This document shows positions 8,792 to 8,906 of a stretch of DNA of 10,032 nucleotides, in pieces. Location of the stretch: assembly GCF_036507355.1 (NCBI RefSeq), contig NZ_AP027880.1; one strand, given 5' to 3'. The translations under genes were made by a program, and so were the position numbers. The stretch comes from Escherichia coli. Lineage in GTDB: Bacteria > Pseudomonadota > Gammaproteobacteria > Enterobacterales > Enterobacteriaceae. Within the stretch, counting starts at the first letter, position 1; each line of letters starts with the position of its first letter. The notes beneath the pieces are model-generated. The model was not told the origin of the DNA, did not search any database, and saw only the letters and a list, made by a program, of their open reading frames with translations.

Positions 8792-8906
8792 GATGACGCA
8801 AAACAAATGGCTCAATGAGCGGCTGGCATATATTCGTGGCCTCAAAGCTCCGAATGACCATCTGCTGACCTTAACAGTTGCAGGTGTTGCAGTTCAGATT
8901 TGAATC
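8792..8906 (+). CDS. Short ORF (38 aa), diverged paralog of the N-terminus of the 1708 ORF; possibly a remnant
   Basis: MTQNKWLNERLAYIRGLKAPNDHLLTL… versus MTQDKWLAERLAYLRGLKAPSDQQRLLL…; nucleotide differences are mostly synonymous third positions. Divergent from mobA across oriT. Confidence 0.35.

Follow-up and report, generated by a model that had tools for sequence, protein, structure and literature searches.

The two ORF starts and the gene family behind them

This study concerns two short open reading frames (ORFs) with similar starts in a 10,032-nucleotide (nt) stretch of Escherichia coli DNA, referred to here as the window. The left ORF encodes 79 amino acids (aa) at 1708..1947 (+ strand, ATG at 1708), and the right ORF encodes 36 aa at 8793..8903 (+ strand, ATG at 8793). 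We conclude with considerable confidence that the two starts are the 5' remnants of two orthologous alleles of the mobilization gene traD, which came from two parent lineages and were fused in a mosaic plasmid, and that they are not duplicates of each other. A first-pass annotation had reported the pair at 1708 and 8792 with about 28 shared codons. The left start was correct and the right one was one base off, and the in-frame similarity was real, but it extends over codons 1-23 only; past codon 23 we observed only scattered matches.

The window corresponds to a 10,032-bp E. coli contig opened at a different position and is 99.6% identical to the E. coli plasmid p2017.17.01CC_2. Joining position 10032 to position 1 gave an unbroken 755-aa autotransporter ORF (5' part at 9010..10032 and 3' part at 1..1245, + strand, with a PF03797 beta-domain), and the window is therefore a complete circle. 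The autotransporter gene sits as cargo between the two traD remnants. As described earlier, the right ORF lies between the origin of transfer, oriT (8672-8705), and the autotransporter (ATG at 9010), and the left ORF abuts a truncated toxin gene, whose homology ends at 1707.

Over codons 1-23 the two ORFs were identical at 48/69 nt and 18/23 aa. The binomial probability of at least 48 matches in 69 is 1.4e-13, or about 1e-5 once some 1e8 position pairs are allowed for. The 21 nt differences were distributed 4/2/15 over codon positions 1/2/3 (chi-square p = 0.0009), with a proportion of synonymous differences (pS) of 0.88 (saturated) and of nonsynonymous differences (pN) of 0.14, in agreement with the earlier description of mostly synonymous third-position changes. 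The DNA upstream of the two ATGs was unrelated. The excess beyond chance, the third-position bias and the unrelated upstream DNA together establish that the similarity is real, coding and old.

Pfam and NCBIfam scans of the 79-aa and 36-aa ORFs gave no match, and the RefSeq sister plasmid NZ_AP027824.1 annotates the 79-aa ORF as a 'hypothetical protein'. In related plasmids, we observed a 144-aa gene for a 'conjugal transfer protein TraD' on the strand opposite to mobA, with oriT between the two. Full-length TraD genes were present in Paracoccus aminovorans plasmid III (WP_074971250.1), pG5A4Y413 (WP_172685615.1), Comamonas aquatica p2_SCLZS63 (WP_260675738.1) and Comamonas sp. C11, as well as in Klebsiella and Acinetobacter plasmids, which are more distant relatives. 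The traD gene was divergent from mobA and about 170-280 bp away in 6/8 plasmids examined. The earlier expectation of an accessory MOBQ mob gene at this oriT was correct for the family, whose full-length members lie beside oriT in related plasmids; both ORFs of the window, however, are truncated remnants. A tblastn search with TraD returned 702 plasmid records (673 typed mobilizable), and against the window it gave E values of 1e-26 (left copy) and 2e-11 (right copy). The gene family is already known, and the two ORFs are not new small genes.

The 23 shared residues correspond to the conserved N-terminus of the TraD family, in which W6, L7, L17 and P20 were invariant among nine aligned sequences. 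Both window copies, aligned from residue 1, fit the segment M-x4-W-L-x2-R/K-L/I-A/T-Y/F-I/L-x-G/A-L-K/N-A/S-P. In intact relatives, PF06412 covers residues 74-138 (39.1 and 42.7 bits, gathering cutoff 22.3), while the Pfam scan found no PF06412 match in either window ORF, and tblastn found no C-terminal TraD coding in any frame across the window. Against an expected full length of about 140-160 aa for TraD, the window ORFs have 79 and 36 aa, of which 55 and 23 residues are TraD-derived. The AlphaFold model of intact TraD was all-helical (pLDDT 88.6), with helices at residues 3-15, 22-31, 38-92, 107-119 and 124-143. The right stub would retain the first of these predicted helices only, and the left remnant the first two and a shortened piece of the long helix. 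A Foldseek search of this model against the PDB gave nothing below E = 1 and hence no fold-based function, and no NCBIfam model matched the intact 144-aa TraD.

These data also bear on the possibility that the similarity comes from a non-coding cis element common to both copies, for example an operator or a recombination site. Both copies do sit at module boundaries, and two joints coincide with start codons, as such an element might predict. The differences, however, fall at third positions in 15 of 21 cases (p = 0.0009), the ORF is open for 144 codons in eight homologues with identity down to 37% and an N-terminus conserved as protein, and the two copies are preceded by unrelated non-coding DNA. 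The codon-position bias and the protein-level conservation exclude this scenario, which the first-pass annotation had named as the one that would overturn its reading, and we consider its probability negligible.

The truncated copies and their joints

The right copy is a stub of the Comamonas allele, comprising codons 1-23 (nt 1-68) at 8793..8860 (+ strand). It is identical to the traD of p2_SCLZS63 at 66/69 nt, and tblastn aligned residues 1-23 at 91%. A distance of 194 nt, which includes oriT (8672-8705), separates its ATG at 8793 from the mobA start at 8599, and this divergent arrangement is the native position of the gene. The region upstream is 100% Comamonas-type except for one change in the Shine-Dalgarno region, which weakens that site from GGGAG to GTGAG. 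The traD homology stops at 8860 (nt 68, inside codon 23), and the joint is at 8860/8861.

The sequence beyond this joint was also found elsewhere. A 24-mer just right of the traD break occurred at eight metagenome and six genome loci, comprising two Comamonas kerstersii contigs, four contigs of one proteobacterial metagenome-assembled genome (three of them at a contig end) and eight metagenome contigs, at least three of which were labelled human gut. At these 14 loci, homology was confined to window positions 8859-8912 (96-100% over 48-54 nt), with one flank conserved and the other variable, and the sequence is therefore the terminus of a mobile element. The full element (locus L022, 8910-10031) is 1,122 bp long, has imperfect terminal inverted repeats (a 35-nt arm pair with 80% complementarity), and lies between two AAT triplets. 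Its transposase is of the IS30 family (NF033563 at 327.7 bits against a cutoff of 80, and Pfam rve; the reference copies have 333-345 aa). The window keeps only one end of about 51 nt (8859..8910, - strand) that consists of the terminal inverted repeat, the 5' untranslated region and the transposase ATG (the reverse complement of CAT at 8859-8861). Since nothing of the transposase but its ATG is left, the feature is a remnant and not an insertion sequence (IS). The 52-nt repeated sequence contains GAATCC and was also considered as an attachment site or the 3' end of a tRNA, but neither ARAGORN nor Rfam gave a hit, and the sequence is the IS end.

At 8910, the outer end of the IS points toward the autotransporter gene, and the inner break, at the transposase ATG, is joined to traD nt 68 through a 2-nt CA microhomology. 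Codons 24-36 of the 36-aa ORF are antisense IS sequence (8861-8903, inside the remnant), because the IS30 remnant replaces traD from nt 69; a stop follows. The right copy does end early, as stated before, but the divergence begins after codon 23 and not about codon 28. Comamonas kerstersii carries, at a fixed locus, an independent 62-nt remnant of the same IS30-family end, which was also seen in metagenome contigs (one or more of them labelled human gut); its break is about 10 nt from that of the window.

A truncated IS30-family remnant beside a captured cargo gene is known from the ISAba125 fragment upstream of blaNDM. As in that system, the outer end of the fragment is intact and adjoins the upstream region of the cargo gene, and the IS body would have been lost by illegitimate deletion. 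Unlike that system, the cargo here is an autotransporter and not a resistance gene, the inner break is fused to an accessory mob gene, and our promoter scan gave no indication of a promoter role.

The left copy is a decayed traD of the Paracoccus/pG5A4Y413 allele (1708..1947, + strand), composed of traD nt 1-118, a 72-nt deletion, nt 191-236, a 423-nt deletion and the tail of a downstream gene, orfX. Its first 69 nt are identical to the pG5A4Y413 traD (69/69), positions 1708-1834 are 97.6% identical to nt 1-127 of the L003 traD, and 1818-1871 matches nt 183-236; tblastn with TraD aligned residues 1-79 only. Deletion 1 (72 nt, in frame) takes out TraD residues ~40-63, and its joint at 1818..1825 (+ strand) holds the one remaining copy of an 8-nt direct repeat, CGCCGACG, as seen in alignments to L003 and L002. 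Deletion 2 (423 nt) has its joint at 1863..1871 (+ strand), with the one remaining copy of a 9-nt direct repeat, GAAGGCCCG, in the alignment to L002; it takes out traD from codon 80 on and most of orfX, so that codon 79 continues into the last 39 nt of orfX. This tail (1860-1908 matches L002 4105-4153; 1860-1907 is 94% identical to L002 orfX residues 73-88) is read in another frame and makes up the last 24 codons of the 79-aa ORF. The left ORF had been taken for the full version of the gene; its two internal deletions and out-of-frame tail show that it is not.

Upstream, the left copy is joined to a decayed toxin-antitoxin (TA) module of the RelE/ParE type II, which is 92-97% identical to that of Comamonas plasmids and which has neither a full toxin domain nor an intact antitoxin. 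The truncated ParE/RelE toxin gene (1511..1711, + strand, PF05016 ParE_toxin positions 1-68 of 89) encodes 66 aa in place of the 90 aa in Comamonas plasmids. It is 94-97% identical to L004 and to L024 (the Comamonas sp. C11 plasmid) until 1707, and traD homology begins at 1708, the A of the ATG, so that the new toxin stop TGA (1709-1711) overlaps the traD start (ATATGA). The TraY/ribbon-helix-helix (RHH)-type antitoxin gene (1384..1527, + strand) encodes 47 aa in place of 75 aa, owing to a 28-codon internal deletion. As a whole, 1273-1947 is a run of decayed antitoxin, toxin, traD and orfX fragments, and the left copy lies about 7 kb from the oriT region.

In the Comamonas sp. C11 plasmid NZ_CP101748.1 (14560-14943, 6799-7487), a fragment of an autotransporter barrel ends 22 nt from the same TA segment, and an 85%-identical IS30-type remnant lies beside the mobA 3' end, in the cargo slot. 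The same cargo slot has been used repeatedly, and the IS30-type remnant there, like the identity of the TA module, points to a Comamonas-type donor. A shared autotransporter-TA ancestry with this plasmid was considered and is unsupported, as the two autotransporters are not detectably homologous (E = 0.1).

Compared with the 144-aa MOBQ TraD, the left remnant is 97.6% identical (nt 1-127) and the right one 96% (nt 1-68/69), and the right copy keeps its position and orientation relative to mobA and oriT. The window copies differ from it in being cut to 23 codons and to 55 codons with an internal 24-codon gap, both without PF06412, and the left copy lies away from oriT, joined to the toxin gene fragment. 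A better-known TraD is that of the Agrobacterium Ti plasmid. According to PMC4700958, this TraD, together with TraA and TraC, autorepresses the divergent oriT promoters (Cho & Winans 2007, cited therein), and it is encoded in the traCDG operon adjoining oriT. The intact parents of the window copies likewise carry PF06412 (39-43 bits, cutoff 22.3) and are oriT-adjacent and relaxase-divergent. The MOBQ-plasmid proteins, in contrast, have an extra N-terminal part of about 70 residues, which is the sole part surviving in the window, and the window has no traC or traG partner; a relaxosome-accessory or autorepressor role of the 144-aa form would be a prediction from the Ti-plasmid TraD.

Mosaic origin and the switch of parental type at oriT

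The full-length traD genes of pG5A4Y413 and p2_SCLZS63 showed 66% nt identity over 435 nt with saturated synonymous sites, and the two window copies 70%. The parental genes differ as the window copies do, and the divergence therefore built up in intact genes of separate plasmid lineages. The earlier proposal of an old divergence under purifying selection, and not a recent duplication, agrees with the match to two extant alleles (69/69 and 66/69); the selection, however, acted in intact ancestors.

Had a small gene, or the 5' end of traD, been duplicated in situ and then diverged for a long time, two copies in direct orientation would also have resulted, and their position on either side of an insert superficially resembles a long target duplication. 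Each copy, however, is 96-100% identical to a different extant allele, and the copies are only 70% identical to each other. Moreover, the right-copy flanks are Comamonas-type while the DNA downstream of the left copy is Paracoccus/pG5-type, and the saturation of the synonymous sites contrasts with the 94-100% identity of the remaining plasmid to its parents. We regard such a duplication as very improbable, and an origin from two parental alleles accounts for the pair.

The parental types were distributed in blocks. The resident backbone was of the Paracoccus-III/pG5 type, to which the Rep3 gene (6189-6979), the N-terminal region of mobA (7800-8578), the left traD and the tail of orfX were 94-100% identical, whereas 8709-8860 and the TA module (1273-1707) were Comamonas-type. 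About 3.0 kb of foreign DNA thus runs from 8709 via the circle junction to 1707, in place of a parent-type interval of about 86 bp between the oriT core and the traD ATG. It holds, in order, the probable Comamonas-type traD promoter region with traD nt 1-68, the 51-nt IS30 end, the autotransporter gene and the decayed TA module. The left traD, bluntly joined to the truncated toxin gene, lost its promoter there.

The mobA relaxase gene (7079..8599, - strand) encodes 506 aa with PF03389 (MobA_MobL, 105 bits), and 7859-8578 of its N-terminal region was mostly 95-100% identical to L002/L003 in 60-nt bins, with a few bins lower. Between mobA and the right traD stub lies an oriT-like site (8672..8705, + strand), consisting of the hairpin TTTCTCGG-CTTG-CCGAGAAA followed by CAACTAAGCGCGCC. 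This was the sole copy in the plasmid (0 expected in shuffles), and it was conserved in five related plasmids. We take the oriT consensus of RSF1010/R1162 (MOBQ) to be an inverted repeat with a TAAGnGCGCC-type nick region about 8 nt later, which the window site fits, and by analogy with these plasmids nic is presumably between 8703 and 8704.

At the hairpin loop (8678-8685), five fixed differences were of the Paracoccus/pG5 type. In the intergenic region from nic to the traD ATG (8709..8792), 39/39 fixed parent differences were Comamonas-type. The switch therefore falls inside 8686-8708, a core of 23 nt that is identical in all five plasmids compared. The hairpin loop and the relaxase N-terminal domain share their parental type, and the DNA just past the core is of the other type; this pattern is consistent with a co-inheritance of the relaxase and its recognition hairpin. 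The intergenic region 8709-8792 probably holds divergent promoters of traD and mobA. It contains an inverted repeat (CACCATT at 8745-8751, AATGGTG at 8759-8765), and the promoter scan found a sigma-70-like site on the - strand (8748-8719) directed toward mobA.

MobA of R1162/RSF1010 is known for relaxase-mediated oriT recombination. Relaxases can catalyse oriT-specific recombination, as with TrwC of R388 (PMC3264647). The window resembles these systems in that the type switch lies within the 23-nt core holding the presumed nic. It differs from them in that the event is here proposed from sequence, and the picture would be no different after homologous recombination or gene conversion in the core.

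We propose that the mosaic arose in three steps. First, a rearrangement in a Comamonas-type plasmid would have joined traD nt 68 to the inside of an IS30 copy beside the autotransporter. Second, one exchange with the resident plasmid in the shared 23-nt oriT core, by relaxase-mediated or homologous recombination, would have brought this DNA in. Third, one illegitimate deletion, from toxin codon 66 to the resident traD ATG, would have cleared the remaining donor. The left copy would afterwards have decayed by deletions between the 8-nt and 9-nt direct repeats, and the right stub was probably kept because the adjoining intergenic DNA (oriT and the mobA promoter) is needed in cis. This scenario would reproduce every joint. 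A simple inversion and a single-insertion model were also examined; neither alone gives both joints, and at least three events are needed. The plasmid in this way offers a base-resolved example of the assembly of a small mobilizable plasmid, through an exchange in the oriT core, an IS30-end scar beside cargo and slippage deletions.

Several points weigh against this account. No intermediate plasmid was found in the plasmid collection, and the order and number of the rearrangements are unprovable. The region 8579-8671 could be assigned to neither parent, with two to three ambiguous markers that lean Comamonas-type, and the oriT hairpin could therefore be a small conversion patch and not the edge of a single crossover. 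The exact position of two illegitimate joints is a start codon, that of traD at 1707/1708 and that of the IS30 transposase at 8859-8861 (- strand). Loss of function is deduced from missing domains, and by the structure model both N-terminal helices and some of the long helix are still encoded by the 79-aa ORF. In addition, the promoter scan found no + strand sigma-70-like site upstream of either traD copy or the autotransporter, and transcription of the autotransporter gene from the orphaned traD promoter, through the stub, is a conjecture.

The coincidence with start codons was noticed post hoc; random breakage would not predict it. It could be explained if oriT served as a cargo-capture site, with relaxase strand exchange at nic, between two MOBQ plasmids whose oriT cores are identical, placing the 3 kb of foreign DNA at the start of the leading region, which is transferred first, the autotransporter expressed from the orphaned, de-repressed traD promoter soon after the plasmid enters a new host, and the start-codon fusions arising from selection for expression and not by chance. 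We consider this rather unlikely.

In the account from two parental alleles, neither ORF would yield a working TraD, and the plasmid would rely on MobA and oriT alone. One may instead suppose that some function remains, with the 79-aa fragment translationally coupled to the toxin remnant via ATATGA, or the 36-aa ORF as a leader, regulating the oriT promoters or the autotransporter. Both copies do have a start codon and the right one its native upstream region, and the two deletions of the left copy are multiples of three (72 and 423 nt). The left copy also retains two short predicted helices (residues 3-31 of the AlphaFold model), the architecture is identical in ten further records, and PGAP annotates the 79-aa ORF as a protein. 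However, PF06412 is missing from both ORFs, antisense IS sequence supplies codons 24-36 of the stub and out-of-frame orfX the final 24 codons of the left ORF, and the right stub would keep helix 1 only, behind a Shine-Dalgarno site weakened from GGGAG to GTGAG. Two in-frame deletions have a chance of about 1/9, and the identity among records reflects recent descent of one plasmid and not selection. Nothing supports functional fragments, and we hold a residual role to be quite improbable. We read the present ORFs as pseudogene scars left by a gene of a known family, and as such the finding is an ordinary one. For annotation, this means that the 79-aa 'hypothetical protein' of E. coli assemblies and the unannotated 36-aa ORF are better described as traD pseudogene fragments.

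The plasmid lineage and its other modules

Ten more records, drawn from E. coli isolates and metagenome scaffolds, carry both junctions and both ORFs in identical form; together with the window they represent one successful plasmid lineage without intact traD. The occurrence of such a MobA/oriT plasmid in several E. coli isolates and metagenome assemblies makes it possible to test directly whether mobilisation needs TraD. Five or more E. coli assemblies at NCBI contain the same GC-rich plasmid with its Paracoccus and Comamonas parts, and it was also seen among ENA metagenome scaffolds, in some of them as tandem multimers (27.9 kb); it was present in only 1/5,426 complete E. coli genomes. A reading of AP027811.1 as a structural variant was rejected: its junctions are the same, and the record is an assembly of this plasmid with many errors.

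The 755-aa autotransporter has a signal peptide, about eight near-identical 52-aa (156-nt) repeats and the PF03797 barrel. Its repeat number and ORF integrity vary across records (called products of, for example, 361-796 aa). In the plasmid collection searched, the region upstream of the gene (8911-9009) was matched only by copies of the same plasmid, and GCTTTGGG occurs in three tandem copies at ~8929-8953, between the IS end and the autotransporter start.

The plasmid has two rep genes, RepA_C and Rep3. A second replicon module of 4.07 kb (2079-6087) lies between the two copies of a perfect 56-nt direct repeat (2023-2078 and 6088-6143) and carries iterons (2176-2286), RepA_C, an RHH protein, ParA, a resolvase and an EexN-like lipoprotein. 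A diverged copy of the 56-nt element is found in the origin region of Paracoccus plasmid III, and the plasmid has the appearance of a cointegrate in which this element joins two replicons. The Rep3 gene is intact in the window, and in NZ_AP027824.1 it has an 80-nt deletion between GGCCGA repeats (window 6254-6333). Finally, 54-nt inverted repeats (4473-4526 and 5576-5629, 98% complementary) flank the serine recombinase and EexN-like genes, and the unit between them could be invertible or transposon-like.
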